Positions 7,764-29,785 of a DNA stretch of 35,093 nt are shown here, piece after piece. The translations under genes and the position numbers were made by a program. How positions within the stretch are numbered: position 1 is the stretch's first letter; every line of letters starts with the position of its first letter. The notes beneath the pieces are model-generated. The model was not told the DNA's origin and did not search any database. It worked only from the letters and a program-made list of their open reading frames with translations. The stretch is from Actinomycetota bacterium. GTDB lineage: Bacteria > Actinomycetota > CALGFH01. The DNA lies in NCBI GenBank assembly GCA_035550755.1, contig DASZON010000036.1, positions 1 to 35,093 on the forward strand. Direction: 5' to 3'.

Positions 7764-7830
7764 TACAGCGCGCGTAGGTCCAGCGGTTGCATTGCATTGG
7801 GGGACTGAACCCGAACCCGAGGAGGATGTG

Positions 7831-8523: not shown

Positions 8524-8573
8524 ACGTCCCGGCGGCCTCAGTACGGGACATCGGCCTGGCGGAACCTGCCCGG

Positions 8574-9746
8574 TCAGGTGGAGCGGTCCTGGCGGGCCGG
8601 CTCACGGAAGACCGACTCGACTTCGAGCAGCACCCTGGTGGCGCGTTCGGCGAAGCGGCCTGGGCGGAAGGGGGCCAGCAGGCCGTCAGGCACCTGGGTG
8701 GCGATCTCGGCCGCGATCAGGCGCCCCAGAGCCGGGGCCACGGTGACCCCGCTGTGGCTGACGGCCAGGTACAGCGAATCCAGCCAGGGCAGCGGCCCGA
8801 CGATCGGCAGCCCGTCTGACGGCATCGCCCGCCAGGCCAGCCACCACCTGTCCAGCCCAGCCCCGCCCAGGGCCGGGAGGAACCGGGCCGCCTGGGCCAC
8901 CAGGGCCCGGGCATGGTCCAGCCCCGGATTGGTGGCCATCGTCTCCTGGGTGCGCTCGCCGACCAGGACCGACCCGTCGGCGCGCTGGCGCAGGTGCACG
9001 GCCGGCCCCGGCCCTCCGGGCAGGTAGACCACCCGGTCGGTCAGCGGGGACAGCGGCCGGGTCTGGGCCAGCATGCCCGGGCTGGCCACCATCGGGACCT
9101 CCAGCCCGACCGCGGCGGCGACCTGGACGGCTTCGGCGCCGGCGGCCAGCACACAGGTCCGGGGCCGCAGCACCTCGGTGCCCGCCTCCACCCGGACGCC
9201 GTCGTCGTCCAGGCGCACCCGGGCCCGGCCGGTCACCAGGCGGGCACCGGCCTCCTCCAGCACCGTCCGGCAGGCACCCAGCACCAGCGCCGGCTCCACC
9301 TGCCCGTCGTTGGGGGCGAAGCAGGCGGCCGAGACCTGACCGAGGTGAGCGCCGGGCAGCAGCCGCGACAGTTCATCGGAGTCGATCAGGCGGATCGGAT
9401 AGCCAGCGCCGCGAGTGTCGGCCACCTGGCGGGCCAGGTGCCGCCCCTCCTCGGGCTCGCTGGTCCAGCGGACCTCACCGGCCCGGCGCAGCCCGACGTC
9501 GCCGCCGATGCGGCGGGCGAACCGCGGCCAGGCCGACATGCCCGAGCAGGCCAGCTGGAACCAGGCCGCCGGGTCCTTGCCGAAGGCCGAGATCGACGCG
9601 AACGAACCGGTCGACGTGCCCTGCCCCGGCCGCTGGGGGTCGATGACGATCGGCCGCACCCCCCGGTCGACCAGGTGGATCGCGATCGAGGACCCGAGGA
9701 TCCCGGCGCCGATCACCACAACTCCCCCATCAGCAGTGTGTCTCAC
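8574..9746 (-). CDS. FAD-dependent oxidoreductase (DAO / glycine-D-amino-acid oxidase family)
   Basis: The start is trimmed to GTG 9746, after AAAGGAG. An N-terminal dinucleotide fold VVVIGAGILGSS is present. The length (390 aa) and C-terminal HSGVTVAPALG are typical of DAO-family flavoproteins. Confidence 0.8.
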   Translation of the reverse strand: MRHTADGGVVVIGAGILGSSIAIHLVDRGVRPIVIDPQRPGQGTSTGSFASISAFGKDPAAWFQLACSGMSAWPRFARRIGGDVGLRRAGEVRWTSEPEEGRHLARQVADTRGAGYPIRLIDSDELSRLLPGAHLGQVSAACFAPNDGQVEPALVLGACRTVLEEAGARLVTGRARVRLDDDGVRVEAGTEVLRPRTCVLAAGAEAVQVAAAVGLEVPMVASPGMLAQTRPLSPLTDRVVYLPGGPGPAVHLRQRADGSVLVGERTQETMATNPGLDHARALVAQAARFLPALGGAGLDRWWLAWRAMPSDGLPIVGPLPWLDSLYLAVSHSGVTVAPALGRLIAAEIATQVPDGLLAPFRPGRFAERATRVLLEVESVFREPARQDRST

Positions 9747-9824
9747 AGGCGCTCCTTTGTCTGTCCGGCCGCGGGCGGGTGCGCCCACCGGGATCAGTCT
9801 GGGTGGCCGTCGGCGCCTTCGCAC

Positions 9825-9862
9825 GGGGCGACCGGCCCCCGCAGGACCTGGCCGTTCGGCCC
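9825..9862. promoter_or_regulatory. box pair: 9825-9838 GGGGCGACCGGCCC and 9849-9862 TGGCCGTTCGGCCC
   Basis: Two boxes lie 24 bp apart in the divergent region between 9746(-) and 9939(+). The proximal box starts 90 nt upstream of ATG 9939. The minus-sense string TAGGGCCGAACGG is shared with the 14580 box. Confidence 0.45.
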
Positions 9863-9938
9863 TACCGGAGGCCCGGCTTGACGGCGATCCTGAGGGTGCC
9901 CGGCCGGCGGCCGGGACGACGGGAGCGAGGAGGTTCCC

Positions 9939-10661
9939 ATGGAACGCCGCGTACGACGCGTACGAGATGTCATGACCTCCGAGGTTGTCACCATCGGCGA
10001 GCAGACAGGCTTCAAGGAGATCGCCGCCGTGATGGCCGAGCATCGGATCAGTGCCCTACCGGTGCTGGACCCCGAGGGCCGGGTGACCGGGATCGTGTCC
10101 GAGGCCGATCTGCTGCTAAAGGAGGAGCTCCCCGAGGGCCGAGCGCGGAGGCGACTGTTCCAGGGTCGCCGCCACCGTGTGCAGCGGGCCAAGGCGGCCG
10201 GCGCCACCGCGGCCGAGCTGATGACCGCTCCCGCGGTCACCGTCGGCCCCGACGCCAGCGTCACCGAGGCAGCCAGGCTGCTTCACCGGCACGGGATCAA
10301 GCGCCTGCCGGTGGTCGACCCAGCCGGCCCGCTGCTCGGCATCGTCAGTCGCGCCGACCTGCTCAAGGTCTTCCTCCGCGCCGACCCCGAGATCGCCCAG
10401 GAGATCCGCCAGGAGGTGCTCCGGCGGGCCATGTGGGTGGACCCGGACCTCGTCACCGTCCAGGTGCGCGACGGCGTGGTCACCCTGACCGGGCAACTGG
10501 AGCGGCGCAGCCTGATCCCGATCGTCGTCAGCCTCGTCCGTGGCCTGGACGGTGTGGTGGACGTGGTCGACCGGCTCACCTTCGAGCTCGACGACAGCCC
10601 GATCATGGTCCCTTCCGACCTGCTGATCAGTCGTGCTCCCGGGGTGCGCCGCTGGATCTAG
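9939..10661 (+). CDS. CBS-pair + BON domain protein
   Basis: A GAGGAGG SD is upstream. The sequence VRDVMTSEVVTI...ISALPVLD...GIVSEADLL, then ELMTAPAVTV...IKRLPVVD...GIVSRADLL, then BON (VRDGVVTLTGQLERRSLIPIVVSLVRGLDGVVDVVDRL) shows the architecture. Confidence 0.85.
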   Translation: MERRVRRVRDVMTSEVVTIGEQTGFKEIAAVMAEHRISALPVLDPEGRVTGIVSEADLLLKEELPEGRARRRLFQGRRHRVQRAKAAGATAAELMTAPAVTVGPDASVTEAARLLHRHGIKRLPVVDPAGPLLGIVSRADLLKVFLRADPEIAQEIRQEVLRRAMWVDPDLVTVQVRDGVVTLTGQLERRSLIPIVVSLVRGLDGVVDVVDRLTFELDDSPIMVPSDLLISRAPGVRRWI

Positions 10662-10690
10662 CCGCTCCAGCGACGCGAACAGATCGCGAG

Positions 10691-11131
10691 GTGATCACCG
10701 TGCCCCAGGCAGTCCATTGTCATGATGCGCCGAACCGCTTGCAGACGGTGCCAGCGTTTCCGGGCAAGTACCTCAGCCTCACCAGCTTCCGGCGCGACGG
10801 CACCGGGGTGGCCACTCCCGTCTGGTTCGTCGAGGTCGGCGGGCGGCTGCTGGTCGAGACCGACGCCGGCTCCTACAAGGTGCGCCGCATCCGCCGCGAC
10901 CCACGGGTGACCATCGCCACCTGCACCGCCACCGGCCGCCGCCGCGGCATCCCCGTGCCGGCGTGGGCCGAGTTGCTGCCCGACGCCGAGGTGGCCCGCG
11001 TGGAGCGGCTGATGGCCCGCAAGTACCGGGTCGACCTGCTGTTCATCAAGCCATTCCGTGCCCTGCAGCGTGTCCTGCGCCGGAATCGGCCTCGCGGGAC
11101 TCCTGTCATCCTGGAGCTCACGCCGTCGTGA
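10691..11131 (+). CDS. pyridoxamine 5'-phosphate oxidase (PPOX)-family, probable F420/FMN-binding split-barrel protein
   Basis: This is the C-terminal part of a long artefactual ORF. KYLSLTSFRRDGTGVATPVWFV...LLVETDAGSYKVRRIRRDPRVTIA matches the PPOX-class pattern. The start is uncertain, either GTG 10691 or GTG 10700. Confidence 0.65.
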   Translation: MITVPQAVHCHDAPNRLQTVPAFPGKYLSLTSFRRDGTGVATPVWFVEVGGRLLVETDAGSYKVRRIRRDPRVTIATCTATGRRRGIPVPAWAELLPDAEVARVERLMARKYRVDLLFIKPFRALQRVLRRNRPRGTPVILELTPS

Positions 11132-11235
11132 CCGTCGACGCAGGTTCGTGTTGAGGGTGAGGACGGCGGCCGAGCCGCGGCGCCGCCGCCTGGGCGTGGC
11201 CGGCCGCCAGCTGCTGCGGTGGATCTTCGGCGCAG

Positions 11236-11628
11236 CTAGCCGGGGCTGCCGGCCAGGCGGATGGCGGTGCCGAGCAGGTCCCGGATCGACACCATGCCGA
11301 TCACCTGGCTGTCGTCCTCGGACAGGACGGGCAGGTGACGGCATTCGAACTCGAACATGGTCGAGGCCACCTCGTGGATGTCGGTGTCGAGGTGGACGGC
11401 GGCGGGCGCGGCCGTCATGTAGTCGGCGGCGGTGACGTCCCTGGGGTCGGTCCCGTCGGCGATCGCCCGGATGAGATCCCGCTCGGTCAGGATGCCCACG
11501 AACCGGCCGCCGACGGTGACGACCACAGAGCCAACCTGCTCGTTCTGCATCCGCTCGGCGGCATCGGCCAGGCACTCATCGCCTTCGACGCGAACCACCC
11601 AGGGACGGAAGATCGACCTGACGTTCAT
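11236..11628 (-). CDS. CBS-pair domain protein (stand-alone)
   Basis: A GAGGTGAGG SD precedes ATG 11628. Two CBS repeats are present (VGSVVVT...GILTERDLI and YMTAAPAAV...CRHLPVL...GMVSIRDLL). The start lies inside the 3' end of the P-type ATPase gene. Confidence 0.8.
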   Translation of the reverse strand: MNVRSIFRPWVVRVEGDECLADAAERMQNEQVGSVVVTVGGRFVGILTERDLIRAIADGTDPRDVTAADYMTAAPAAVHLDTDIHEVASTMFEFECRHLPVLSEDDSQVIGMVSIRDLLGTAIRLAGSPG

Positions 11629-14545
11629 CTCGCCTCACCTCATCTGGAACAGCGTCCGTCTCTGCCAACGCTAGCCGGCGGCGGTCCGGCGCCTCAGGGT
11701 CTTCTGGCCTGTCGCCTCGGTGCCGGTCGGCCCGGTGCCGGCGGATGACCGCCTTGCGGGCCTCCTCGGCCGCGAACAGCAGCACCGGGGCGGCCAGCGT
11801 CGGTAGCCACTGCGCCAGGGTCAGCGGCTGGTGCCCGAGCAGTGCTTGGATCGGCCCCAGGTAGACGAACCCCAGCAGGGCCAGACCCTCGATGGCCACG
11901 GCCCCCACCAGCAGGCGGTTGGTCGCCAGTCCGATGGTGCGCAGCGACAGCCGGGAGCTGCGGCACTCGAAAGCGTTGGCCATCTGGGCCAGCACGATGG
12001 CGGCGAACACCATGGTCGAAAGGGTGGCCAGCGCTGGGCCGCCGGCCGGTAGGGGCGTCCCCGGACGCCAGCCGAAGAACAGCGCGGCCCCGACCGGCAG
12101 CATGGCCAGCGAGGCGACCGCCTCCACCGGACCGAGGAACCCGAAGGCGCGGGCGAGCACGGCGCGGTCCAGCGACCGGGCCGACCGCGCCCGCGGTTGT
12201 CGCTCCATCACCCCTGGCTCGGGGGGCTCGGCCCCCAGGGCCAGCGCCGGCAGCAGGTCGGTGCCGATGTCCAGGGCGAGGATCTGCAGCACCGACAGCG
12301 CCAGGGGAACACGGCCGGCGGTCAGGGCCCACAGCACGAACGGGGCCAGCTCGGCGACGTTGTCGGTGAGGTGGTAGGTGAGGAACCGCTTGATGTTGTC
12401 GAAGGCGGCCCGCCCCTCCTCCACCGCCTCGACGATGTGGGCGAAGTTGTCGTCCAGCAGGACGATGTCGGCGGCCGAGCGGGCCACGTCGGTGCCGACC
12501 ACGCCCATGGCCACCCCGATGTCGGCCCGGCGCAGGGCCGGGGCGTCGTTGACGCCGTCACCGGTCATGGCCACCACCTCGCCGCGGGCCTGCAGCGCCT
12601 TGGCGATGCGGAGCTTCTGCTCGGGGGCGATACGGGCCAGCACCGACACGCCGCTGCCGAGCAGGTTGGCGAGCGCGTCGTCGTCGGCTGGGAGGTCGGC
12701 GCCGAGCACCACCCGGCCGTTGCGCAGCCCCGCCTTGGCGGCAACGGCGGCCGCCGTGGCCGGGTGGTCGCCGGTGACCATGACCACCCGGATCCCGGCC
12801 CGCCGGCAGCGGGCGATCGCCTCGGGGACCTCAGGGCGGACCGGGTCGGCCATCCCGATCAGCCCGAGCAGCTCCAGGTCCTGCTCGGCAGCCGCCGCCG
12901 TCGGCGGCACCTGGCCGTCGAGCTCACGCCGGGCCAGGGCCAGCACCCGCAGCCCATCGGCGGCGAGGGCCTCCACGTCGGCCAGGACGGCCGCCTCCCG
13001 GCCCGGGTCGAGCGGGACCCGGTGGGCGCCGACCCGGACGGACGTGCACGCCTCCAGGACAGCTTCCGGCGACCCCTTGGTGAACAGCTCCAGCCCGCCC
13101 GTGGCGAGTCGATGGGCCGTGCTCATCCGCCGTCGGGCCGACTCGAAGGGGTACTCTCGCGCCCGTGGCGCCGCCCGCTCGGTCGGCTGCCTGGTCAGGC
13201 CGCCCTTGGCCGCCAGGGTCAGCAGTGCGCCCTCGGTCGGGTCGCCGACACAGCGCCAGCGGCCGTCGTGCCTCTCCAGGTGGGCGTCGTTGCAGAGTAC
13301 GGCCGCCCGGAGCAGGTCCTGCAACTCGGACTGCTCCCTGGGCGTCAGCGGCCGGTTCCCTGCCAACAGCGCCCCAGACGGGTCATAGCCGATCCCTGTG
13401 GCGCGGTACTGCGTTCCGGCCACCGCGACCGCCCGGGCGGTCATCTGGTTGGCGGTTAGGGTGCCGGTCTTGTCCGAGCAGATCACCGTTGTGGAGCCGA
13501 GCGTCTCCACCGCCTCCAGGTGCCGGACCAGCGCCCCACGCCGGGCCATGCGGGTCGCGCTCATGGCCAGCGACAGGGTCAGCGTCGGGAGCAGCCCCTC
13601 GGGGACGAGGGCGACGATCACCCCCACGGCGAACAGGAAGCCGGCCCGCGGCGGGGTCCCAAGGGCGAGGGACACGCCGAAGAAGACCATGCCGGTGGCG
13701 ACGGCGAACCCGCCGATCGTCCCCACCGACCGGTTGAGGTCCAGCCGCAGGGGGGTGGGGCGGCGGGCGACCTCGCCGGTCAGCCGGGAGATGGCTCCCA
13801 GCCGGGTCCTGGCTCCGGTGGCCACGACCACCACCCAGCCGCTGCCGGAGGCGACGTAGGTGCCGGCGAAGACCAGGTTGGATGCCTCAGCCGGGTCCGA
13901 GGGTGCGACCGCCAGGGCGCCCACACTGCGGGGTACCGGTTCGGACTCGCCGGTCAGGGCCGCGTTGTCGACTTTCAGGTCATCGGATTGCAGTATCCGG
14001 CCGTCGACCGACACCCGGTCGCCCTCGGTGAGCAGGAGGATGTCGCCCGGGACCAGGTCGGCTGCGGGGACCCGCCGTTTGCGGCCGTCGCGAAGGGCCG
14101 TCGCCTCCTCGGGGAGCAGCGCCGCCAGCGCCCGGGTGGCCCGCTCGGCCCGGTACTCCTGCACGAAGCTGAAGGCGCCGTTGATGATCACCACGGCGAT
14201 GATCGCCCAGCCGAGCTGGGGCATCTGGCCGATGAAGGCCAGCACCGCCGCGACCCAGAGCAGCAGCGCGAAGAAATGGAGCAGCTGGGCGGCGAACTGG
14301 CGTGGGAGGCTCGGTCCCCGGGCCTGCGGGAGCTGGTTGGGTCCGGCCTGGGCCAGCCGCGCGGCCGCCTCCGGGTACGACAGGCCGCCGGCGTCCACGC
14401 TCAGCTCTCCCAGCACGGCCTCGGCTGGAAGCGTGGCCAGCCGTGGCAGCGATACGTCACCCCGGATCGTGGCCGGGACGAGCGGTCCGGCGGCCCGCCA
14501 TCCCCGGTGTCCATTGCGGCGGCTGGTGGTCGTGGCGGTCTTCAT
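11576..14545 (-). CDS. cation-translocating P-type ATPase (P2 type, CtpF/Ca-ATPase-like)
   Basis: The hallmark motifs CSDKTGTLT, MVTGDHPATA, TGDGVNDAPAL and PEGL are all present, with about 10 TM segments. ATG 14545 (MKTATTT) is preferred over GTG 14575. Confidence 0.9.
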   Translation of the reverse strand: MKTATTTSRRNGHRGWRAAGPLVPATIRGDVSLPRLATLPAEAVLGELSVDAGGLSYPEAAARLAQAGPNQLPQARGPSLPRQFAAQLLHFFALLLWVAAVLAFIGQMPQLGWAIIAVVIINGAFSFVQEYRAERATRALAALLPEEATALRDGRKRRVPAADLVPGDILLLTEGDRVSVDGRILQSDDLKVDNAALTGESEPVPRSVGALAVAPSDPAEASNLVFAGTYVASGSGWVVVVATGARTRLGAISRLTGEVARRPTPLRLDLNRSVGTIGGFAVATGMVFFGVSLALGTPPRAGFLFAVGVIVALVPEGLLPTLTLSLAMSATRMARRGALVRHLEAVETLGSTTVICSDKTGTLTANQMTARAVAVAGTQYRATGIGYDPSGALLAGNRPLTPREQSELQDLLRAAVLCNDAHLERHDGRWRCVGDPTEGALLTLAAKGGLTRQPTERAAPRAREYPFESARRRMSTAHRLATGGLELFTKGSPEAVLEACTSVRVGAHRVPLDPGREAAVLADVEALAADGLRVLALARRELDGQVPPTAAAAEQDLELLGLIGMADPVRPEVPEAIARCRRAGIRVVMVTGDHPATAAAVAAKAGLRNGRVVLGADLPADDDALANLLGSGVSVLARIAPEQKLRIAKALQARGEVVAMTGDGVNDAPALRRADIGVAMGVVGTDVARSAADIVLLDDNFAHIVEAVEEGRAAFDNIKRFLTYHLTDNVAELAPFVLWALTAGRVPLALSVLQILALDIGTDLLPALALGAEPPEPGVMERQPRARSARSLDRAVLARAFGFLGPVEAVASLAMLPVGAALFFGWRPGTPLPAGGPALATLSTMVFAAIVLAQMANAFECRSSRLSLRTIGLATNRLLVGAVAIEGLALLGFVYLGPIQALLGHQPLTLAQWLPTLAAPVLLFAAEEARKAVIRRHRADRHRGDRPEDPEAPDRRRLALAETDAVPDEVRRDERQVDLPSLGGSRRRR

Positions 14546-14580
14546 GGCACCACCCTGGCCCGGGGAATGCACCACCGGCA

Positions 14581-14617
14581 GGGCCGAACGTCCCGTGGAG
14601 AAGGGTCAAGCGGACCC
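14581..14617. promoter_or_regulatory. box pair: 14581-14594 GGGCCGAACGTCCC and 14603-14617 GGGTCAAGCGGACCC
   Basis: The pair lies in the 126-nt divergent region between the P-type ATPase (ATG 14545) and the TusA-like/V-ATPase operon (ATG 14672). The boxes are 22-23 bp apart. The second box is part of the 17-nt palindrome AGGGTC-AAGCG-GACCCT. Confidence 0.45.
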
Positions 14618-14671
14618 TGCCCGGGCGCTGGGCCCGGCTGCCACGCTGGGTGGGCGCAACAGGAGCAGCCG

Positions 14672-14980
14672 ATGCCCGCGACCATTGCCATGGCCCTTGA
14701 CCTGCGGGGCGTGACCGTCACCCTGACGGTGGCCCGCGCCGCCGTGGCCATGGCCGGACTGGGCGCTAGAGAGCCGATCGAGGTGCGGACCAGCGACCCC
14801 GACTCGGTCCGGGACCTGACGGTCTGGGCCAGAGCGACCGGCAACCGGCTGGTCGAGCAGTCCCAAGGTGCCGGCTGGCACCGGTTCGTCCTTCAGACGC
14901 GAGGACCGAGGCCATGGAGGCGGCCGACGCCGAGCGAGGCCACTCGGAGACCAGGAGCTGGCGATGGCATGGCCGGGTGA
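14672..14980 (+). CDS. TusA/SirA-like fold protein lacking the catalytic cysteine
   Basis: An AGGAG SD lies 6 nt upstream of ATG 14672. LDLRGVTVTLTVARAAV...GAREPIEVRTSDPDSVRDLTVWARATGNRLVE follows the TusA pattern LDxxGLxCPxP...GExLxVxxxDPxxxxDIxxW. The Cys-Pro-x-Pro position is replaced by V-T-L-T. The gene overlaps the next gene by 17 nt. Confidence 0.5.
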   Translation: MPATIAMALDLRGVTVTLTVARAAVAMAGLGAREPIEVRTSDPDSVRDLTVWARATGNRLVEQSQGAGWHRFVLQTRGPRPWRRPTPSEATRRPGAGDGMAG

Positions 14981-15422
14981 TCTCCTGAACCGGTTCCGGC
15001 CCGCCGGCACGCCCGGAGCGGCGGCGCGGGCTGGGGTCCCGGTGGATCGGGCAGCCGAGGCGGCCGCTGAGCTCGAACCCGTCCTCGCGCTGCTCGCGGA
15101 GGCCGAGTCGGCCTGCGCGGCGGTGCGGGAGCGGGCGCGGCAGGATGCCAAGGACATCGGCGAGCGGGCCCGGGCGCGGGCGGACGGCCTGCTCGCCGAG
15201 GCCCGCGCCCAGGCGGACAGCGAACGTGCCGCCGCCGCCGCCCGGGCCCGCGCCCGCGGCCAGGCCGAGTCGGTCCGCCTGACCGGCCAGGCCGAACGGC
15301 GGGCGACCGCCCGCCATGAGCTGGCCGAGCAGCGGATGCCCTGGTACGTCAGCCGGGTGGTGGCCATGGTCCGTACCGCCGGCGAGGCAGCGGGAACGAC
15401 CGGCCGGGGAGATCCCCGATGA
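14964..15422 (+). CDS. A/V-type ATPase peripheral-stalk-like coiled-coil subunit (G/H-like)
   Basis: An AGGAG SD precedes ATG 14964. The 152-aa protein is Ala/Arg/Glu-rich and predicted coiled-coil (AEAESACAAVRERARQDAKDIGERARARADGLLAEARAQADSERAAAAA). The assignment rests on its position at the head of the V-ATPase operon and the ATGA overlap with subunit C. Confidence 0.55.
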   Translation: MAWPGDLLNRFRPAGTPGAAARAGVPVDRAAEAAAELEPVLALLAEAESACAAVRERARQDAKDIGERARARADGLLAEARAQADSERAAAAARARARGQAESVRLTGQAERRATARHELAEQRMPWYVSRVVAMVRTAGEAAGTTGRGDPR

Positions 15423-16376
15423 TCGCCCCCCGGACGCCACCGCTGCCTGGTCCGGGTCGTGGCGGCGGCCATGGGACGTCCTGGGTGGCCGGGACCGTGC
15501 GGGCCAGGTCGCTGGCCCGGCGGCGGCTGGGCGCCGGGGCGGCAGGGAGGCTGGCTGGCTCCGCCTCGCTGCAAGAGGCCACCACCGCCCTGGCGGCCAC
15601 CCCGTACCGCCACGGGGTGCGGGCCGGGCAGGACCTCGCCGGAGCCCAGCGCGGGGTCACCGTGACCCTGCTGTGGCACCTGCGGGTCCTGGCCGGCTGG
15701 CTGCCGCGCGACGGCGGGAGGATGCTGCGGCTGCTCGCCGGCTGGTTCGAGATCGCCAACGTCGACGACCTGCTGCAGCAGATGGCCGGCCTGCAGGTGG
15801 AGGGGCCGCTGCCGCTCGGGACCCTCGCCACCGCCTGGCCACGATGCGCGCGCGCCCGCTCCCCCGCCGAGCTGCGGGCCACGCTGGCGACCTCGCCCTG
15901 GGGCGACCCCGGGGGCGACACCGCCCGGGAGGTGCAGCTCGGCATGCGACTGTCCTGGTCCGCGCGGCTTTCCCGGCTGCAGCGGGTCGCGCCGTGGGCG
16001 GCAGGGGCGGCCGCGCTGCTGGTGGCGCGCGAACGGTTCCTGGCCGGCCGGGGACTCCCCGCCACACTGCACGGCCAGGTGACCCGGCTGCTGGGACGGG
16101 ACGCGCTGGCTGCCACCTCCCTTGCCGAGCTGCAGCGGCGCCTCCCCGAGCCCGCCGGGTGGGCCCTGGCCGGGGTCGAGGACCCCGTGGACCTGTGGCG
16201 GGCCGAGGGGGGCTGGTGGTCCCGGGTGGAACGGGACGGATTCGAGCTCCTGGGCGCCGGGAGCTTCGGCGCGGCGCCCGTGCTCGGCGCCGCGGCCGTC
16301 CTGGGCGCCGACGCCCAGCGGGTCCGGGCAGCCCTGGAGCTGGCCGCCCGCGGCGGACGGCCGTTGGAGGTGTTCG

Positions 16377-16390
<14 letters not shown>
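15419..16390 (+). CDS. ntpC: A/V-type ATPase subunit C (V0 d-like)
   Basis: The 323-aa size fits. The pattern ...LEATTALAATPY...LLWHLRVLAGW...LAGWFEIANVDDLL resembles the helical subunit C/d family. Placement between the stalk subunit and subunit I supports the call. Confidence 0.7.
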
Positions 16391-18473
<2,083 letters not shown>

Positions 18474-18477
<4 letters not shown>

Positions 18478-19007
18478 CCCCCCACACCATCCTCTCCCCC
18501 GGCGCCGGCGGCGCGCTCGAACCGGTCCGGGCCTGGCTGCTGGCGGCCGCCCACGCCGAGGCCGAGCGCCTGCGCGCGGAGGCTGCCGCCGACGCCGAGC
18601 GCGTGGTCGCGGGCGCCCGCGCGGAGGCCGACGCGATCCTGGCCGATGCCAGGGCCCAGGGGACCGCGGAGGGTTCGGCGCTGGCCGTGGCCGAGCAGGC
18701 CCGCAGCCGGCGCCAGGCCCGCCGGCTGGTCCTCCAGGCCGAGCGGGAAGCCTATGAGGAGCTGCGGGCCCGCAGCCGCGCGGCGGTCCGCGCCCTGCGC
18801 CAGGACCCGGGCTATCCGGCGCTGCGGGAGCGACTGGACCGGCTTGCCCTTGCCGCCGCCGGGCCGGGCGCCAGCGTCAGCGAGGACCCAGACGGTGGCG
18901 TGGTCGCCGAGGCGCCGGGCATTCGGGTCGACTGCACCCTGGACGGCCTTGCCGAGCGGGCGATCGCAGCCCTCGGCGGGGAGGTGGCGCAGCTGTGGGC
19001 CCCCTGA
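18474..19007 (+). CDS. ntpE: A/V-type ATPase subunit E (peripheral stalk)
   Basis: A 177-aa protein with an N-terminal Ala/Glu/Arg coiled coil, then a globular C-terminus (GGVVAEAPGIRVDCTLDGLAE). Its position immediately before subunit A supports the call. Confidence 0.7.
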
Positions 19008-20713
19008 CCGGCCGCGTGCTGCGGGTGAACGGCCCGCTCGTCGAGGTCGGCGGGCTCGCCGGGATCGCCATGCTCGACCTGGTGGAGCTGGGCCCCGAGC
19101 GGCTGCCCGGCGAGGTCATGGCCATCCGGGGCGACGTCGCCACCGTCCAGGCCTACGAGTACACCGGCGGCCTCGGAGCGGGCGCGGCGGCTCGGGCCCG
19201 CGGCGAGCCGCTGTCCGCGCCGCTCGGCCCGCACCTGCTCGGCGGGGTGTTCGACGGACTGCTCCGCCCGCTCGCCGGCGCCGGGAGGTGGCTGACGCCC
19301 GCCGGCCGTCGGGCCGGCCAGGATGACGGCCGCCGCTGGCGGTTCACGCCGGCCGTTGCCGGGGGCGCCGCCGTGACCGCCGGAACCCCGCTCGGCGCGG
19401 TCACCGCCGGGTCGGTCCCCTACCACGTGCTCGTGCCGCACGGGCTGCACGGCCGGGTGGAGGCGATCCGCCCGGCCGGGAGCTACCCGGCGGACGTGCC
19501 GGTGGCGACGGTGGCCGGCCACCAGGTGACCATGTCCACACGCTGGCCCGTGCGGCGCCCAAGGCCCTACCGTGAGCGCCTGGACGCGGCCATGCCCCTG
19601 GTCACCGGCCAGCGGGTCCTGGACGCGCTGCTGCCGGTGTCCCTTGGTGGTACCGCGGCCGTACCCGGCGGCTTCGGCACCGGCAAGACGGTCCTGCTCC
19701 AGCAGATCGCCAAATGGTGCGAGGCCGACGTGATCGTGTACGTGGGCTGCGGCGAGCGGGGCAACGAGCTGGCCGACGTGGTCGCCGAGCTGGCCGAGCT
19801 GCCCGATCCCCGCACCGGCGGGCGCCTGGCCGAGCGGACCGTGGTCGTGGCCAACACCTCCAACATGCCGATGATGGCCCGCGAGGCCAGCGTGTACAGC
19901 GGGGTCACCGTCGCCGAGCATTTCCGCGACATGGGTTACGACGCCGTGGTGATCGCCGACTCGACCTCGCGCTGGGCCGAGGCGCTGCGCGAGCTCGCCT
20001 CCCGCAGCGGTGCCCTGCCCGCCGAGGAGGGCTATCCCGCCGACCTCGCCTCGGCCCTGGCCGCCTTCTACGAGCGCGCCGGGCGGGTCGTGACCGCCGG
20101 GGGCCGGACGGGCTCGGTGACCGTCATCGGCGCCGTCTCCCCGCCCGGCGGCGACCTTACCGAGCCGGTCACCACGCACACCCAGCGCTTCGCGCGCAGC
20201 CTGTGGACGCTTGACCGGGGGCTGGCCTACGCGCGCCACTACCCCGCGGTGTCGTGGGCGGACTCCTTCTCCCGCGACACCGAGGCCGTGGGAGCCTGGC
20301 ACGCCGGCCACGGCGACCCCGGCTGGGCGCAGCGGCGGGCCAGGATCAGCGGCCTGCTCGCCGAGGCCGACCGGCTCGGGGCGCTGGTCGAGCTGGTGGG
20401 GGCGGCCGCGCTGCCCGCCCGGGAACGGGTCGTGCTGCTCGGGGGCCGCCTGCTGCGCGAGGCGGTCCTCCAGCAGAGCGCGCTCAGCCCCATTGACGCG
20501 TTCTCCCCTGCCGAGCGGACGGCCGCGCTCACCGGCGCGGTCCTGGACGTGGTCGACGACTGCCAGGTCCTGGCCGACCGCGGCGTGCCGGCCGCGGTCA
20601 TCGAGGAGCAGGACTTCTCGCCCCTGCTGCGCGCCCGCGAGGAGGCCGACGGCGCCGCCGAGGTCGCTGCCCGCCGCGACACCATGCTCACCCGTCTGGG
20701 GGCGCTGCCATGA
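18995..20713 (+). CDS. ntpA: A/V-type ATPase catalytic subunit A
   Basis: Walker A PGGFGTGKTVLLQQ, GCGERGNE, TSNMPMMAREAS, SRWAEALRE and the V/A-specific insertion before the P-loop are all present. The start is GTG 18995. Confidence 0.95.
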   Translation: MGPLTGRVLRVNGPLVEVGGLAGIAMLDLVELGPERLPGEVMAIRGDVATVQAYEYTGGLGAGAAARARGEPLSAPLGPHLLGGVFDGLLRPLAGAGRWLTPAGRRAGQDDGRRWRFTPAVAGGAAVTAGTPLGAVTAGSVPYHVLVPHGLHGRVEAIRPAGSYPADVPVATVAGHQVTMSTRWPVRRPRPYRERLDAAMPLVTGQRVLDALLPVSLGGTAAVPGGFGTGKTVLLQQIAKWCEADVIVYVGCGERGNELADVVAELAELPDPRTGGRLAERTVVVANTSNMPMMAREASVYSGVTVAEHFRDMGYDAVVIADSTSRWAEALRELASRSGALPAEEGYPADLASALAAFYERAGRVVTAGGRTGSVTVIGAVSPPGGDLTEPVTTHTQRFARSLWTLDRGLAYARHYPAVSWADSFSRDTEAVGAWHAGHGDPGWAQRRARISGLLAEADRLGALVELVGAAALPARERVVLLGGRLLREAVLQQSALSPIDAFSPAERTAALTGAVLDVVDDCQVLADRGVPAAVIEEQDFSPLLRAREEADGAAEVAARRDTMLTRLGALP

Positions 20714-22164
20714 CCGCCATGGGAAGCCCGAGACCGGCGGTGTCCGTTCCGGTCAACTGGGCCGAGGTCGAGCACACCGACGTGGAGGAGCTCCGCGGTC
20801 CCCTGGTGGTCGTCCGCGGGGCGGAGGGGGTCGGCTGGGACGAGCTGGCCAGCGTCCGGCTCGCCTCCGGCGAGACGCGGCACGGCCTGGTACTGGAGGT
20901 CGACCGGGACCTGGCGGTGGTCCAGGTGCTCGAGGGCACCGATGGGATGGACCCGGCGGGGACCCGGGTGGCGTTCTCGGGCCACCCCCTTCGCGTCCCT
21001 GTCGGGCCCGGCTGGCTGGGCCGGGTCTGCAACGGCCGCGGCCAGCCGATCGACGGCGGGCCGCCCGTGTTCGGCCCGGCGGAGGCGCCCGTCGACGGCG
21101 CCCCGCTCAACCCCACCCTGCGCGAGCCGCCGGCCGAGCCGGTGCTCACCGGCGTTTCGGCCTTCGACGCCCTGACGACCCTGGTCCGCGGCCAGAAGCT
21201 GCCGATCTTCTCCACCGCCGGCCTGCCCCACCTGACCCTGGCCACCCAGGTGGCCGCCCAGGCGTCGGCCGGCGGGGAGCCGTTCAGTGTGGTGGTCGCG
21301 GCGATGGGGCTCACCCACGCCGACGCCGCCGCCGTCCGCGACGCCCTGGAGGAGCGGTCGGCCGCCGGTGAGCTGGCGCTCCTGCTCAACCTGGCCGACG
21401 ACCCGGTGATCGAGCGGATCCTGACCCCCCGCATCGCCCTCACCGTCGCCGAGCATCTGGCCTTCACCCACGGCCGCCATGTCCTGGTGGTCATGGCCGA
21501 CATGGCCAGTTACTGCGAGGCGGTCCGTGAGGTCTCGATCGCGCGCGGCGAGATCCCCGCCCGGCGGGCCTACCCCGGCTACCTGTACTCCGACCTGGCC
21601 TCACTGTACGAGCGCTGTGGACGCATCCGCGGGGTCGCCGGCTCGGTCACCGTGCTGCCCGTCCTGACCATGCCGGCCGGCGACATCACGCACCCGGTGC
21701 CCGACCTGACCGGGTACATCACCGAAGGCCAGGTGGTGCTGTCGGGCGAGGTCCACGCCCGCGGGATCTACCCGCCCGTCGACGCGCTGTCGTCACTCTC
21801 GCGCCTGATGCGCAAGGGTGCCGGCCCCGGCCGCACCCGCCGGGAGCACCTGGACCTGGCCGCCCAGCTGCTGGCCGCCCTCGCCCGGGCGCGGCAGGCC
21901 CGCGAGCTGGCCGAGCTGGTCGGCGCCGGCGCGCTCAGCGCCACCGACCGCGGCTACCTGGAGCTGGAGCGGAAGTTCGAGCGCCTGCTGGTCAGCCAGC
22001 GGCCCGACCAGCGCCGCAGCCTGGACGAGACCTTCGAGCGAGCCTGGCGGGTGCTGTCGGCGCTGCCGCGGCGCGAGCTCACCATGATGTCCGCCGCGGA
22101 CCTCGACGCCCACCACCTCCACCAGGTCGGGGACGAGGGCGTCGAAGCGGAGGACCGGCGATGA
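20710..22164 (+). CDS. ntpB: A/V-type ATPase subunit B
   Basis: Motifs RGQKLPIFS, VVAAMG, DMASYCEAVREVS, RRAYPGYLYSDLASLYER and PAGDITHPVPDLTGYITEGQ are typical of non-catalytic subunit B. It has an ATGA overlap with A. Confidence 0.95.
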   Translation: MTAMGSPRPAVSVPVNWAEVEHTDVEELRGPLVVVRGAEGVGWDELASVRLASGETRHGLVLEVDRDLAVVQVLEGTDGMDPAGTRVAFSGHPLRVPVGPGWLGRVCNGRGQPIDGGPPVFGPAEAPVDGAPLNPTLREPPAEPVLTGVSAFDALTTLVRGQKLPIFSTAGLPHLTLATQVAAQASAGGEPFSVVVAAMGLTHADAAAVRDALEERSAAGELALLLNLADDPVIERILTPRIALTVAEHLAFTHGRHVLVVMADMASYCEAVREVSIARGEIPARRAYPGYLYSDLASLYERCGRIRGVAGSVTVLPVLTMPAGDITHPVPDLTGYITEGQVVLSGEVHARGIYPPVDALSSLSRLMRKGAGPGRTRREHLDLAAQLLAALARARQARELAELVGAGALSATDRGYLELERKFERLLVSQRPDQRRSLDETFERAWRVLSALPRRELTMMSAADLDAHHLHQVGDEGVEAEDRR

Positions 22165-22796
22165 GCGCCGGGCGGCCGCGGGTTCCGCCCGGGCGGGCGG
22201 GCAGGCTGTGGCTGCGCGGCCGCCTGGCGACCGCCGAGCGCGGCCTGGACCTGCTCGACCGCAAGCTGCGGATCCTGCGCCGCGAGCAGGAGCGGCTGGA
22301 CCTGCTGGCAGGCCGCACCGGCGAGGAGCTCGAGCGCACCTGCCGCGACGCCGAGACCTGGCTGCTGCGCGCCGGACTGCTGGGCGGCCAGCGCGACCTG
22401 CGGCTGGCCGGCGGCGGACCGCTGGCCGAGGTGCGCATCGCCTGGCGGGACACCATGGGCGTTCACTATCCAGCTGAGGCCAGACTCGACCTGCCCGAGC
22501 CGGTGCCTCCGCCGCCGGCCTGCACGGCCGCGCTCGCCCCGGCGGCGGCCGCCCACCGGGCCGCGCTGGCCGCCGCCGTGGGCCACGCCGCCGCAACCGC
22601 GGCCGTACGCCGGGTCGCCGGGGAGGTCGCCGCCACCCGGCAGCGGCTGCGCGGCATCGAGGACCGCTGGATCCCCCGCCTGCGCGCCGCCCTCGCCGAG
22701 CTGGAGCTGTCCTTGGACGAGCTGGAGCAGTCCGACAACGCTCGGCTGCGGCGGGCGGTGCCAGGCGCGGCGACGGCGAGGGGGCGGCGGCCATGA
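22161..22796 (+). CDS. ntpD: A/V-type ATPase central-stalk subunit D
   Basis: The 211-aa protein has the subunit D opening LRGRLATAERGLDLLDRKLRILRRE and a C-terminal helix RRVAGEVAATRQRLRGIEDRWIPRL. There are ATGA overlaps on both sides. Confidence 0.85.
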   Translation: MSAGRPRVPPGRAGRLWLRGRLATAERGLDLLDRKLRILRREQERLDLLAGRTGEELERTCRDAETWLLRAGLLGGQRDLRLAGGGPLAEVRIAWRDTMGVHYPAEARLDLPEPVPPPPACTAALAPAAAAHRAALAAAVGHAAATAAVRRVAGEVAATRQRLRGIEDRWIPRLRAALAELELSLDELEQSDNARLRRAVPGAATARGRRP

Positions 22797-23230
22797 TCAC
22801 CCGGATCCTGCTGGCCGTCGACGACTCCGAGGGCGCGCTGGCCGCCGCCCGCGTCGCCATCGACCTCGCCGCCCGCCTCGGCGCCCGGCTCCGGGTCGTC
22901 AACGTCGTCCAGGACGGCCGGCTCGGCCAGACCCTGGCGGCGGCCTCGGGACATCCCGACCTGGGGGCCCGCCGTGCCCACGCCGGGTCGGCCGTGCTCT
23001 GCCATGTCGCCGAGCTGGCCCGCCGCTCCGGCGTCAAGGCCGAGACCTGCCAGCTCGAGGGGTCCCCGGCCCGGCGCATCCTCGACCAGGCCCGGTCCTG
23101 GCCCTCCGACCTCACGGTCATCGCCAGGTCCCAGCAACGCCGCCGTGCCGGCGACCCGTATGTCGGCGGCCAGACCGCCCACGTGCTGGAGCTCACCGAG
23201 CAGCCGGTGCTCGTCGTCCCCCATACCTAA
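22793..23230 (+). CDS. universal stress protein (UspA family)
   Basis: ILLAVDDSEGALAAARVAIDLA...LRVVNVV opens the protein, and the C-terminal GGQTAHVLELTEQPVLVVP is the canonical USP ending. The start overlaps the subunit D stop (ATGA). Confidence 0.8.
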   Translation: MITRILLAVDDSEGALAAARVAIDLAARLGARLRVVNVVQDGRLGQTLAAASGHPDLGARRAHAGSAVLCHVAELARRSGVKAETCQLEGSPARRILDQARSWPSDLTVIARSQQRRRAGDPYVGGQTAHVLELTEQPVLVVPHT

Positions 23231-23284
23231 ACCGGCCGCCGGCATCGGCTCGAGCAGTCGGGCCGAGACCAGCGAGGTCAGTGG

Positions 23285-23956
23285 TCAGATGACCAGCCGT
23301 GCGCTGGACACGTCGTCGATGTCGTAGCCGAGCCGGTTCACGACCCGGACCACGCCGTCGACGGCCGCGACGGCACGCACCACCGTGGGGACGAGGCTGC
23401 GTCGTTCACAGCGGCCCTGCAGGGTCACCACACCGTCCCGGACATCGACGTCGAACCGGTCAGGCGCCATGACCAGGTCGCTGAAGATGACGTTTTCGAC
23501 GATCTCCCGGCGCAGCTCCTCATCGGGCGGCAGGAACGACGTGAGCAGGTCCGCCCGACTGACGATGCCGACCAGCCGGCCGACCACGTCCACCACCGGC
23601 AGCCGCTTGACCCCGGCACGGTGCATGCGCCGGGCCGCCTCGGTCACGGTGGCCAGCGGTTCGACCGTGATCGCCGGCCGGGTCATCAGCTCGGCCGCCA
23701 CCGTGGGTTCCGCCCTGGCCCGATCCCGCCGCCGAAGCCGCGCCGACAGCAGCCGGCCCGGCCCGTCGCCCGGCTGCTCCGGCTTGGGCAGCAGGTCGGC
23801 CTCGGAGACGACCCCGAGGACGCGCCCTCGGCCGTCGACCACCGGCAGGGCGCTCACCCGCCGGCTGGCCAGCAGCTTGACCAGCTCCTTGTAGGAGCTG
23901 TCCTCGTGGGCGCAGGCCACGTCCCTGGTCATCACGTCATGGACCCGGTGGTGCAC
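23285..23956 (-). CDS. CBS-pair + BON domain protein
   Basis: The start is trimmed to GTG 23956, 6 nt after AAAGGAG. The sequence VHDVMTRDVACA...VSALPVVD...GVVSEADLL, then ELMTRPAITV...VKRLPVVD...GIVSRADLL, then BON (VRDGVVTLQGRCERRSLVPTVVRAVAAVDGVVRVVNRL) shows the architecture. Confidence 0.85.
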   Translation of the reverse strand: MHHRVHDVMTRDVACAHEDSSYKELVKLLASRRVSALPVVDGRGRVLGVVSEADLLPKPEQPGDGPGRLLSARLRRRDRARAEPTVAAELMTRPAITVEPLATVTEAARRMHRAGVKRLPVVDVVGRLVGIVSRADLLTSFLPPDEELRREIVENVIFSDLVMAPDRFDVDVRDGVVTLQGRCERRSLVPTVVRAVAAVDGVVRVVNRLGYDIDDVSSARLVI

Positions 23957-24129
23957 TACACTCTCCTTTCGCCCCCGGTGGTCACCGGAACGCGCCGGCG
24001 GGCCGACCGATGCAGCCGGTCCGGCAGCCCCAGCCCGGTGGTCCGGCGGTGATCCATGCGCAGGTGCGAGAGCAACTCGCTCGGCGTCGGGAAGCGCAGC
24101 TGGCACTTGGGGCACTGCACGATGGTCAT
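23956..24129 (-). CDS. small (57 aa) C2H2 zinc-finger protein
   Basis: An AGGAGG SD lies 8 nt before ATG 24129. MTIVQCPKCQLRFPTPSELLSHLRMDH fits C-X2-C-X3-F-X5-L-X2-H-X4-H exactly. The C-terminal tail is Arg-rich. Its stop TAG overlaps the GTG of the next gene (TAGTG). Confidence 0.6.
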   Translation of the reverse strand: MTIVQCPKCQLRFPTPSELLSHLRMDHRRTTGLGLPDRLHRSARRRVPVTTGGERRV

Positions 24130-24195
24130 GATGCTCACCTCCTGGAGGGCGCAGGTCCCCGTCTTCACTGTGACGAATGGATCGCTGCACCGACA

Positions 24196-24209
24196 GGGCC
24201 GACAGGCCC
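24196..24209. promoter_or_regulatory. single box GGGCCGACAGGCCC
   Basis: The arms are perfectly palindromic. The box ends 80 nt upstream of ATG 24129 (zinc-finger/CBS-BON unit). It shares the extended string AGGGCCGA with the boxes at 14580, 9863(-) and 34842(-). A weaker GGACCGTCCGACCC lies at 24230-24243. Confidence 0.4.
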
Positions 24210-24279
24210 GCAGTCGGTAGGCATATGGCGGACCGTCCGACCCGGCACCTGCCGATGCGGGGGCTGCCGCCCGAGCTGG

Positions 24280-24597
24280 CTACCCGGCTGTCGAGCGTTG
24301 GTACCTGAACGCCCAGGGCTCGGCGCCCCGGCCTGCCTCCACCCATCCATCGCCCTCGATCTCGCGACGGAGATCCCCAAGGCTCTTGGTCATCCCGGGC
24401 GCCCACGCCTCTTGCGGAGGCAGCGTGCCCAGCGTTCTCGGCGCGGGGAACGTGGCGCCCTCGTACCGGCGGTGGCCGTCGACGCGGCCGACGAATCGCA
24501 GGTACGCGTCGCCCGACTGCGACGCCAGGGTGGCGAGCGCGCCCGCCCACCACGACGCTCCGGCAAGGTCTTCCAATTCGATCTGGAGAGTCGCCAT
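24280..24597 (-). CDS. hypothetical protein (105 aa), no family recognised
   Basis: A GAGGAGG SD lies 5 nt before ATG 24597. The composition is balanced and non-repetitive (MATLQIELEDLAGASWWAGALATLASQSGDAYLRFVGRVDGHRRYEG...), unlike the Arg/Pro-rich shadow ORFs nearby. Confidence 0.5.
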   Translation of the reverse strand: MATLQIELEDLAGASWWAGALATLASQSGDAYLRFVGRVDGHRRYEGATFPAPRTLGTLPPQEAWAPGMTKSLGDLRREIEGDGWVEAGRGAEPWAFRYQRSTAG

Positions 24598-29190: not shown

Positions 29191-29706
29191 TCACCCGAGG
29201 CGAGCTGCGCCGGCACGATCCCGCGGCGATGCTGGGCAGGCGTGGTCCGCGCGGGCATGCCGGGCCAGGGCAGCGACCAGGTCACCGGTGGCGATGGTCC
29301 CCACCGGATGGCCGTGACCGTCCACCACTGGCAGCACGTCCAGGTGCTGTTCGTCCATCAGCCGCGCCGCCTCGACCAGCGGCTGGTCGGCCGCCACCAC
29401 GAGCGGGCTGGCGCGCATCAGCTGCCACACCCGCAGGCTGGCGAGCAGCCGCTGATGACGCAGGGATGGCCCGGGGAGCTGGGGCAGCGGCCGGCCGGGC
29501 AGGGACCGGGCGAGCACGTCCCCCAGCGTGACCACGCCGACCATCCGTCCACGGTGCAGCACCGCCGCCCCGGCCACGCCCCGGGCCAGCTGGCGGGCGG
29601 CCACATCGGCGGGTGTGTCGGCGTCCAACACCAGCACCGGGGTGGTCATGGCGTCGCCGACCGTGCCCAGCAGGTGGTCCGAATCAGGATGGTGGTCGGT
29701 GAGCAT
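29191..29706 (-). CDS. CBS-pair domain protein (stand-alone)
   Basis: The start is trimmed to ATG 29706, after GAAGGAGG. Two CBS repeats are present (VGDAMTTPVLVL...GAAVLH...GVVTLGDVL and VWQLMRASPLVV...LDVLPVVD...GTIATGDLV). Confidence 0.8.
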   Translation of the reverse strand: MLTDHHPDSDHLLGTVGDAMTTPVLVLDADTPADVAARQLARGVAGAAVLHRGRMVGVVTLGDVLARSLPGRPLPQLPGPSLRHQRLLASLRVWQLMRASPLVVAADQPLVEAARLMDEQHLDVLPVVDGHGHPVGTIATGDLVAALARHARADHACPASPRDRAGAARLG

Positions 29707-29785
29707 GACGATCAACCTCCTTCGTCCCGACCAGCCTCCCAGCTTCCCGGCCCCGGCGCCGCCGCCGATCGGCACCCTTTCTCCA

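Follow-up and report, generated by a model that had tools for sequence, protein, structure and literature searches.

What would an actinobacterium do with a V/A-type rotary ATPase, and under which conditions would it make one? The question is raised by a 35,093-nt stretch of DNA (Actinomycetota bacterium, GenBank assembly GCA_035550755.1, contig DASZON010000036.1, positions 1 to 35,093; hereafter the window), whose forward strand carries at 14672-23230 an operon for such an enzyme, preceded by a pair of palindromic boxes that resemble the sites of the regulators DevR (DosR) and OsdR. On balance, and with a confidence only a little better than even, we read the enzyme as an accessory, H+-translocating, ATP-driven pump belonging to a DevR/OsdR-type stress regulon, a reading in which we infer the identity of the regulator, inducibility, H+ specificity and direction from sequence and by analogy.

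Dormancy physiology asks by what means obligate aerobes among the actinomycetes, and environmental mycobacteria, maintain energised membranes under oxygen starvation. If a second rotary ATPase were indeed wired to the DevR/OsdR regulon, it would be a concrete and testable candidate for this task, and several carriers from Streptomyces, Actinoallomurus, Streptosporangium and Nonomuraea are in culture. In addition, a stator arm with one lobe together with an extended ring subunit would be a natural experiment on the number of peripheral stalks that a V/A enzyme needs. The kind of machine and the annotations of its genes are already known: PGAP names the V/A genes in cultured strains, e.g. on plasmid p1 of Streptomyces fungicidicus, and a species description from 2025 mentions A/V-type genes in an actinomycete (PMC12451618). 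In the literature that we searched, we found no paper on the regulation of this operon and no description of a rotary ATPase as a member of a DevR or OsdR regulon; nor does that literature describe an association with Dev/Osd boxes across the phylum, a subunit I with one lobe or an extended subunit K. Since the operon is already annotated as a genome feature, and bacteria with both an F-type and an A-type enzyme are common (one of each in 890 bacterial genera according to ProAD, PMC11738941), we consider these results interesting rather than startling.

A complete and translationally coupled operon

Eleven open reading frames (ORFs) on the plus strand (14672-23230) follow one another without internal gaps and encode, in this order, a TusA-like protein, nine V/A-ATPase subunits (H/G-like, C, I, K, F, E, A, B and D) and a universal stress protein (USP). 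Neighboring genes overlap by 17, 4, 14, 16, 4, 4, 13, 4, 4 and 4 nt at 14964, 15419, 16377, 17801, 18247, 18474, 18995, 20710, 22161 and 22793, respectively, and the sole upstream non-coding DNA is the 126-nt gap at 14546-14671. A first-pass annotation of this DNA had listed the same ten genes and the USP as chained by start/stop overlaps, each of which was reproduced exactly in our own gene calls. It had taken the chain for one translationally coupled unit, and the layout bears this out for all eleven genes, with overlaps throughout, no internal gaps and only the one stretch of non-coding DNA upstream. The calls are identical to existing NCBI and/or JGI proteins on the same contig, the NCBI entry being a third-party-annotated metagenome-assembled genome (MAG) labelled Streptosporangiaceae bacterium. 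Annotators disagree on two starts, that of the second gene (g2), which is placed later by NCBI (126 aa), and that of the third (g3), which is placed at GTG 15485 by JGI; the long start of g2 is backed by its N-terminus MAWP..RFR, which is conserved in relatives.

Pfam gathering scores were passed by the TusA-like protein, subunits I, K, F, A, B and D, and the USP. The curated NCBIfam cutoffs were passed by A and B only, with D and F below their equivalog cutoffs, which indicates that the small subunits are very divergent. The catalytic subunit A (g8, 18995-20713, GTG start, 572 aa) matched Pfam ATP-synt_ab (9.8e-70) as well as ATP-synt_ab_Xtn (1.1e-14), the A-specific barrel-sandwich insert, and scored 643 bits against an NCBIfam cutoff of 470. 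It carries GGFGTGKT (Walker A) at 225, GERGNE at 253 and an SPPGGD segment, and its closest solved relatives are the A subunits of Thermus thermophilus (518 bits) and Pyrococcus. Next to it lie subunit B (g9, 20710-22164; Pfam 1.4e-68; NCBIfam 591.9 bits, cutoff 349) and the central-stalk subunit D (g10, 22161-22796; Pfam 3.5e-21, 76.4 bits, cutoff 25.7), while subunit F (g6, 18247-18477, 76 aa; Pfam 5.3e-06, 27.1 bits, cutoff 23.5) is encoded further upstream. Subunit I, or a (g4, 16377-17816; Pfam 1.2e-20, 73.5 bits, cutoff 30.7), is a short form of 479 aa with a whole membrane domain and a single-lobe N-terminal domain; its R385 and R443 align to R735 and R799 of yeast Vph1, and both are invariant in 30 homologues. 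Subunit K, or c (g5, 17801-18250, 149 aa; Pfam ATP-synt_C 5.3e-16, 59.1 bits, cutoff 24), combines an N-terminal two-helix module and an Ala/Pro linker with one c-type hairpin, in which Glu132 aligned to the proteolipid Glu.

The remaining subunits were identified less directly. Subunit E (g7, 18474-19007, 177 aa) is divergent and stays below cutoff in both Pfam (0.0079; 16.1 bits versus 24.2) and NCBIfam (9.8e-07), and g2 (14964-15422, 152 aa), which JGI names subunit H, shows a weak likeness to archaeal subunit H (NCBIfam 6.9e-04; 19.8 bits against a cutoff of 107). The positions of both genes are kept in all related loci, where g2 is the first conserved gene of the operon, and by this position and conservation the two are the probable peripheral stalk pair, E plus G/H. 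For g3 (15419-16390), no family match was obtained by Pfam, by NCBIfam or with a 30-sequence profile against PDB sequences, and it is identified as subunit C (d) by fold only: its AlphaFold model has a pLDDT of 90.8, and its top 17 PDB matches in Foldseek are all V/A-ATPase subunit C or V-ATPase subunit d (TM-scores up to 0.68).

Compared with two related loci (L081 and L082), the ratio of nonsynonymous to synonymous substitution rates (dN/dS) was 0.18-0.60 for every gene of the operon, with all nine subunits under purifying selection. Judged from sequence, all nine V/A subunits are present and the complex looks functional; the signatures described as intact in the first-pass annotation are so, namely Walker A and GERGNE in subunit A, R385 and R443 in subunit I and Glu132 in subunit K. 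The NCBIfam alt_F1F0 models for the alternate F1Fo enzyme (N-ATPase) score far below cutoff (e.g. 94.7 versus 752 for the beta subunit). N-ATPase operons are alike in concept, as second, laterally distributed rotary ATPase operons beside a housekeeping F1Fo, but encode a machine different from the V/A type.

Paired boxes in the upstream gap

The 126-nt gap separates the operon from a divergent P2-type cation ATPase gene on the minus strand (11576-14545, 989 aa; Cation_ATPase_N, E1-E2, Hydrolase and Cation_ATPase_C domains), which is followed by a gene for a CBS-pair protein (11236-11628, minus strand; Pfam CBS 4.4e-22). Within the gap, box 1 (AGGGCCGAACGTCCCG, 14580-14595) is the better conserved, 'primary' site, agreeing with 13 of the 16 positions of the OsdR consensus AGGGCCGATCGGCCCT and containing a perfect GGGnCnnnnGnCCC core. 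Box 2 (AGGGTCAAGCGGACCCT, 14602-14618) is a degenerate, 'secondary' site with perfectly inverted 6-nt arms and a spacer that is one nt longer. The two boxes have three and five mismatches to the 16-nt consensus, respectively, and their centers are 22-23 nt apart. The consensus was defined and validated by electrophoretic mobility shift assay in Streptomyces coelicolor, and conforms to the DevR site of Mycobacterium tuberculosis (PMC5069765). DevR promoters of the latter species always hold at least two tandem boxes, with a conserved site recruiting the regulator to a degenerate neighbor and the proximal box at -42.5 (PMC3177182). The pair at 14580-14618, one box conserved and one degenerate, matches both the DevR/OsdR site and this tandem layout.

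The same geometry recurs between two divergent CBS-BON genes (7727-7765), between a flavin adenine dinucleotide (FAD) oxidoreductase gene on the minus strand and a CBS-BON gene on the plus strand (9824-9863), and in front of the CBS gene at the window's right edge (34804-34842). Counting the pair at the operon, three of the four sites pass a strict threshold, compared with 0.07 expected from shuffles (about 40-fold), and the strict pairs are all intergenic and upstream of start codons. Only the consensus-weighted pair test is enriched; the loose pattern GGGnCnnnnGnCCC on its own is not (6 observed and 9.6 expected in the window). The box pair that the first-pass annotation had described in 14546-14671, shared with the divergent P-type ATPase and its CBS gene, is real.

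The boxes are also found in relatives. Both L081 and L082, whose subunit A is 87-88% identical to ours, have kept CGGGTCGAAGGTCCCG and a degenerate second box about 98 nt before g2, while their upstream neighbors differ from those in the window: one of them has a CBS gene there, the other a Kelch-repeat gene. Among 60 related loci, 19 have a perfect GGGnCnnnnGnCCC core no more than 300 nt upstream of g2, a 13-fold enrichment compared with the remainder of these loci (P about 6e-17). The perfect cores cluster at -71 to -121 relative to g2, often with a weaker partner 21-23 nt away, and in the Streptomyces loci the paired boxes are 21 nt apart.

A putative -10 element for the ATPase operon (CACGCT, 14642-14647, plus strand) is an nANNNT hexamer located 23 nt after box 2, and its mirror-symmetric counterpart for the P-type ATPase (CAGGGT, 14552-14557, minus strand) lies 23 nt from box 1; this distance between box and nANNNT is also seen at other box pairs and in L081 and L082. 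If the DevR geometry applies, rightward transcription is predicted to start near 14652-14653, leaving a leader of roughly 20 nt with AGGAG, and leftward transcription at the start codon itself (ATG, 14545), so that the P-type ATPase mRNA would be leaderless. A scan of 14300-23500 for intrinsic terminators and sigma-70 promoters returned 0 sites, as expected for a high-GC actinomycete, and an Rfam scan of the whole window gave no match.

Both the divergent use of the gap and its left-hand gene have counterparts among known targets. DevR activates divergently at tgs1-Rv3131 (PMC3177182), and ctpF is a DosR-regulated P2-type ATPase with a two-box promoter (PMC3177182, PMC6879984); the divergent gene in the window has the P2-type architecture, with the two boxes 34 nt from its ATG. 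Overall, the locus resembles DevR(DosR)/OsdR regulons in the palindromic GGGnC-N4-GnCCC box, in the conserved site beside a degenerate one at 50-120 nt before the start codon, in the divergent intergenic use, and in targets that include USPs, CBS-pair proteins and a P2-type ATPase (PMC3177182, PMC5069765, PMC6879984). It differs from them in its wider spacing, 22-23 nt between centers rather than 21.

A shortened stator and an extended ring subunit

Subunit I has a median length of 470 aa in the related loci, and its close homologues all have 420-530 aa. In a search space of 1.84 billion representative sequences, full-length matches to this short form extend down to about 46% identity, and the next tier consists of canonical I subunits of 618-674 aa that align only from their residue 275-285 onward, to residue 113-117 of the query. 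Profile alignments agree, covering residues 275-652 of NtpI from Enterococcus hirae and 184-646 of the T. thermophilus subunit. As a profile, the N-terminal 175 residues weakly match the N-terminal domain of Meiothermus subunit I (3RRK): the first beta-alpha-beta unit aligns to 3RRK 13-67 and a GWxP segment falls near 3RRK 290, with 3RRK 13-67 and 196-308 being spanned within about 130 residues. The structural model, of moderate confidence (pLDDT 75.6, pTM 0.46), has a single alpha/beta lobe at residues 12-143; whole-chain TM-scores were low and were left unused owing to the moderate quality of the model. In T. thermophilus, the arm of subunit I has two lobes joined by a coiled coil, each binding one EG stalk (PMC7367684). 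Such a two-lobed cytoplasmic arm is not found in the window's subunit I, from which about 165 residues of the arm appear to be missing, the coiled coil and the distal lobe having apparently been deleted.

Subunit K (median 143 aa in the related loci) has a layout that is conserved across the clade, with an N-terminal helix, an Arg-rich loop, a second helix with an Ala/Pro linker, and one canonical hairpin. The N-terminal module is coding as judged by its GC content at third codon positions (GC3, 0.94), and its predicted topology would fit the positive-inside rule. An origin of the N-terminal helices as a degenerate duplicated hairpin was considered and rejected (hhalign probability 0.04). On sequence comparison, the short I and the extended K are features specific to the actinobacterial lineage.

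These traits set the enzyme apart from its characterized relatives. With the T. thermophilus V/A-ATPase (A3B3DF-d-c12-a-E2G2) it shares the nine subunit types, the fold of subunit C, both stator Arg residues and the ring Glu. However, its subunit I has 479 rather than 652 aa, and the parts of the arm that hold the second EG stalk in T. thermophilus appear to be missing (PMC7367684); moreover, it has the extra two-helix module on K and very divergent small subunits, and is probably an accessory enzyme and not the only ATP synthase. In its proposed role it resembles the E. hirae Ntp V-ATPase, an accessory V-type enzyme that works beside F1Fo as an ATP-driven ion pump, and whose K subunit likewise has four helices and one carboxylate. 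NtpK, however, is a true duplicated hairpin that binds Na+. In the window's K, no homology was seen between the N-terminal helix pair and the hairpin, and the Na+ ligands are lacking; moreover, NtpI is of full length (672 aa), and gene order and regulation also differ.

A bolder proposal, which we regard as doubtful when taken as a whole, is that of a structural variant of the V/A enzyme peculiar to Actinomycetota, with a subunit I devoid of the coiled-coil arm and distal lobe, maybe a single peripheral stalk as in F-type enzymes, and a K subunit joined to an unrelated two-helix module. As a dedicated member of the DevR/OsdR dormancy response, this variant would use ATP to pump protons and so keep the membrane energised in hypoxic, non-growing cells, a task that the hydrolysis-latent F1Fo of actinobacteria could not perform.

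How the enzyme might work

The first-pass annotation had left the coupling ion to an inspection of the ion-binding residues of subunit K. Compared by sequence with the known list of Na+ ligands of the V-ATPase K subunit, helix 1 (AVSYTG) has no Gln/Glu and helix 2 (LAEGIAIYG) has no Ser/Thr after the Glu, so that the complete Na+ motif is absent. Four helices are predicted per carboxylate, an arrangement that Cross and Muller (2004) are said to have described for the pump-type proteolipids of E. hirae and of eukaryotes. V/A enzymes coexisting with F1Fo act as pumps in the characterized cases. The four helices per carboxylate and the analogy with V-type enzymes beside F1Fo both point to operation as a pump, as arguments rather than tests. 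With respect to the ion, ProAD scores a site that misses any Na+ ligand as H+ (PMC11738941), and by this rule the ligands missing from K favor H+ specificity.

Under our preferred reading, a single promoter in the 14546-14671 gap would transcribe the operon. The two tandem boxes would be bound by a DevR(DosR)/OsdR-type regulator of the NarL family whose gene would lie outside this contig. The conserved box would recruit it to the degenerate neighbor, and the bound pair would activate both the rightward ATPase-USP operon and the leftward genes for the P2-type pump and the CBS protein. The likely signal would be oxygen or redox limitation, or non-growth. The enzyme itself would consist of an A3B3 head, a D-F-C rotor, a stalk of E and the H/G-like subunit, an I stator and a K ring, and would run as an ATP-driven proton pump, maintaining pH homeostasis and the proton-motive force at times when respiration is unable to do so.

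Spread and age of the operon

A genome scan with one genome per species yielded 510 genomes with a relative of subunit A. The best 80 matches (65-74% identity in subunit A) are all from Actinomycetota, including Streptosporangiaceae, Actinoallomurus, Microtetraspora, Nonomuraea, Streptomyces, Nocardioides, Blastococcus and Mycobacterium MAGs, and the gene order g2-C-I-K-F-E-A-B-D is kept in every one of them. The first-pass annotation's description of A/V-type operons as sporadic in bacteria understates the spread of this one in Actinomycetota. In a neighbor-joining tree of subunit A, built without outgroups, separate groups are formed by nine Streptomyces, by the Mycobacterium sequences, by the cultured Streptosporangiaceae together with Actinoallomurus, and by a set of Micrococcales/Propionibacteriales.

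Base composition was compared as well. GC content is 70-79% in the window, with 76-79% over the operon versus 70-73% in the flanks. Nevertheless, GC3 in the operon genes (0.86-0.95; 0.82 in g1) is similar to that of the flanks (0.90-0.94), the extra GC being at codon positions 1 and 2 of genes for Ala/Gly/Arg-rich proteins. A horizontal origin, which the placement of subunit A was meant to probe, is not borne out: the tree broadly follows taxonomy and GC3 is host-like, and on these grounds we ruled out recent horizontal transfer. Conserved order in actinobacterial loci, the groups in the tree and the flank-like GC3 all indicate by sequence that the operon is an old, widespread and taxonomically coherent actinobacterial lineage, and not a recent import.

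Some copies are found at arm or accessory locations: in Streptomyces and Embleya they lie on replicons of 0.9-3.1 Mb, very large for the plasmids as which they are recorded, and the operon of Streptomyces sp. NBC_01340 lies 0.57 Mb from a chromosome end. A few proteins that carry the labels of Gemmatimonadota or Gemmataceae MAGs are placed within the actinobacterial clade, or share 90% identity clusters with the K and F of this contig; these are probably mis-binned contigs rather than cases of cross-phylum transfer. A different arrangement was noted on the small Pseudonocardia broussonetiae plasmid NZ_CP053565.1 (7567-14176), where V-type F, A and B are immediately followed by an HAD-IC P-type ATPase and no D, I or K is annotated nearby, i.e. 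a head-only, V1-like set beside a P-type pump.

Alternative explanations

Several observations weigh against the reading of this operon as a stress-regulated proton pump. Two-thirds of the 60 related loci have no perfect core within 300 nt, many of them with one-mismatch sites; box 2 is degenerate with an odd spacer, and the 22-23 nt between centers compare with 21 nt in M. tuberculosis. The window contains no DevR/OsdR gene and no response regulator, and a NarL-type regulator was found near the operon in only 2 of 85 loci (full-length matches to an approximate DevR probe). As to direction, sequence does not discriminate: the V/A enzyme of T. thermophilus is a synthase with a c12 ring (PMC7367684), and even the pump-type E. 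hirae V-ATPase can synthesize ATP (PMC12018189). The main rival builds on this last point: the same complex, under the same stress regulation, would be an ATP synthase adapted to low proton-motive force, making ATP in hypoxia at an ion/ATP ratio different from that of the housekeeping F1Fo. The T. thermophilus synthase provides the closest solved relative of subunit A, and the coupling residues are all intact. We still think this alternative improbable, though it deserves more weight than those that follow. With one carboxylate per four predicted helices, the ion/ATP ratio would be lowered if the extra helices are in the ring, which disfavors synthesis at low proton-motive force, and those accessory V/A enzymes that have been studied alongside an F1Fo are pumps, which also argues against it.

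The regulatory half of the preferred reading would fall if the accessory ATPase were constitutive, or answered to another signal such as acid or salt, with the GC-rich palindromes being incidental or serving a different regulator. The lack of enrichment of the loose GGGnCnnnnGnCCC pattern and of an adjacent regulator gene would agree with this, as would the many carriers whose genus names and MAG labels point to acidic soils or peat. We nevertheless judge it quite unlikely, given the roughly 40-fold excess of strict pairs, all upstream of starts, the 13-fold enrichment at a fixed distance upstream of g2 across genera, the persistence of the boxes in L081 and L082 despite other neighbors, and a motif that equals the validated OsdR/DevR site. 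A V-type ATPase that pumps sodium, as E. hirae Ntp does, and serves salt or alkaline stress together with the P-type pump seems less probable still. The absence from K of the helix-1 Gln/Glu and of the Ser/Thr after the Glu, which makes it H+ by the ProAD rule, outweighs for us its NtpK-like four helices and the Na,K-ATPase-like site motifs of the neighboring P-type ATPase, and the 'H+/Na+' in some JGI labels is a generic KEGG name. Finally, we give hardly any credence to a recently acquired foreign island or a decaying relic without a working enzyme. Such an origin could be suspected from the elevated GC content, the failure of all subunits but A and B at the NCBIfam cutoffs, and the copies on Streptomyces megaplasmids; yet the excess GC spares third codon positions, the tree tracks taxonomy, every gene has a dN/dS below 1, and the key residues are all kept.

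Genes around the operon

The first gene of the chain (g1, 14672-14980, plus strand) encodes a TusA-fold protein of 102 aa (Pfam TusA 3.9e-11) without any cysteine, in which the position of the CPxP motif of TusA reads VTVTLT; lacking the catalytic cysteine, it cannot be a sulfur carrier. Using phmmer, no homologue of g1 was detected among the ORFs within 1.5 kb upstream of g2 in 59 related loci, and relatives with a subunit A 87-92% identical to ours also lack it, so we rejected TusA as a regular part of the operon. At the other end, the USP gene (g11, 22793-23230, plus strand; Pfam Usp 8.6e-21) overlaps the stop codon of subunit D with its start (ATGA), and a USP is found directly 3' of D in 25 of 74 loci. 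The nucleotide-binding segment of this USP is degenerate (ARSQQRRRAGDPYVGGQT, where UspFG-type proteins have G-x2-G-x9-G-S/T), and it may not bind ATP.

The divergent P-type ATPase had been described as a Ca/cation-type pump followed by a CBS gene. While the P2-type ATPase and the CBS gene were confirmed, the Ca type is less well matched by the ion-site motifs. Its best PDB matches are the alpha subunit of Na,K-ATPase (497 bits) and then the Listeria Ca-ATPase (436 bits), and its TM4 (VPEGLLPT) and TM6 (LDIGTDLLP) resemble what we take to be the corresponding motifs of P2C pumps. By these motifs it looks closer to Na,K/H,K-ATPase than to a Ca pump, and may move monovalent cations and not Ca2+. 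A P-type ATPase is present nearby in 9 of the 80 best loci and CBS-type genes in 18; in S. fungicidicus, the arrangement is CBS / operon / USP / CBS / P-type. The proposal that a set of ion pumps is deployed together therefore applies to this contig but not as a rule, given the rarity of the P-type ATPase and the restriction of TusA to this locus.

Across the window, we identified at least nine CBS/CBS-BON genes (3101-11634, 23285-24553, 29191-30453 and 34832-35092). Besides the USP, other products are a glutamate dehydrogenase, an FAD oxidoreductase, a baeRF protein and a GNAT-acyl-CoA-synthetase-like protein. By the CBS and USP genes and the three further box pairs, the whole contig looks like a stress island of the DosR/OsdR type. 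In the DosR regulon of M. tuberculosis, the counterpart of the CBS-pair proteins is presumably Hrp1/Rv2626c. USPs and ctpF are among the members of that regulon (PMC3177182).

Two further genes of the island were noted. A baeRF gene (bacterial archaeo-eukaryotic release-factor-like) is located near the ATPase island both in the window (32273-33658, minus strand) and in L081 (21342-21722). The large protein encoded at 4360-7152 (minus strand) begins with a GNAT domain, after which come CoA-binding, succinyl-CoA-ligase-like and ATP-grasp domains. Actinomycete PatA-type protein acetyltransferases or ADP-forming acyl-CoA synthetases share this domain order. A palindrome, GGGTCGTGCGACCC, is found at 4345, just 3' of the stop codon of its gene.

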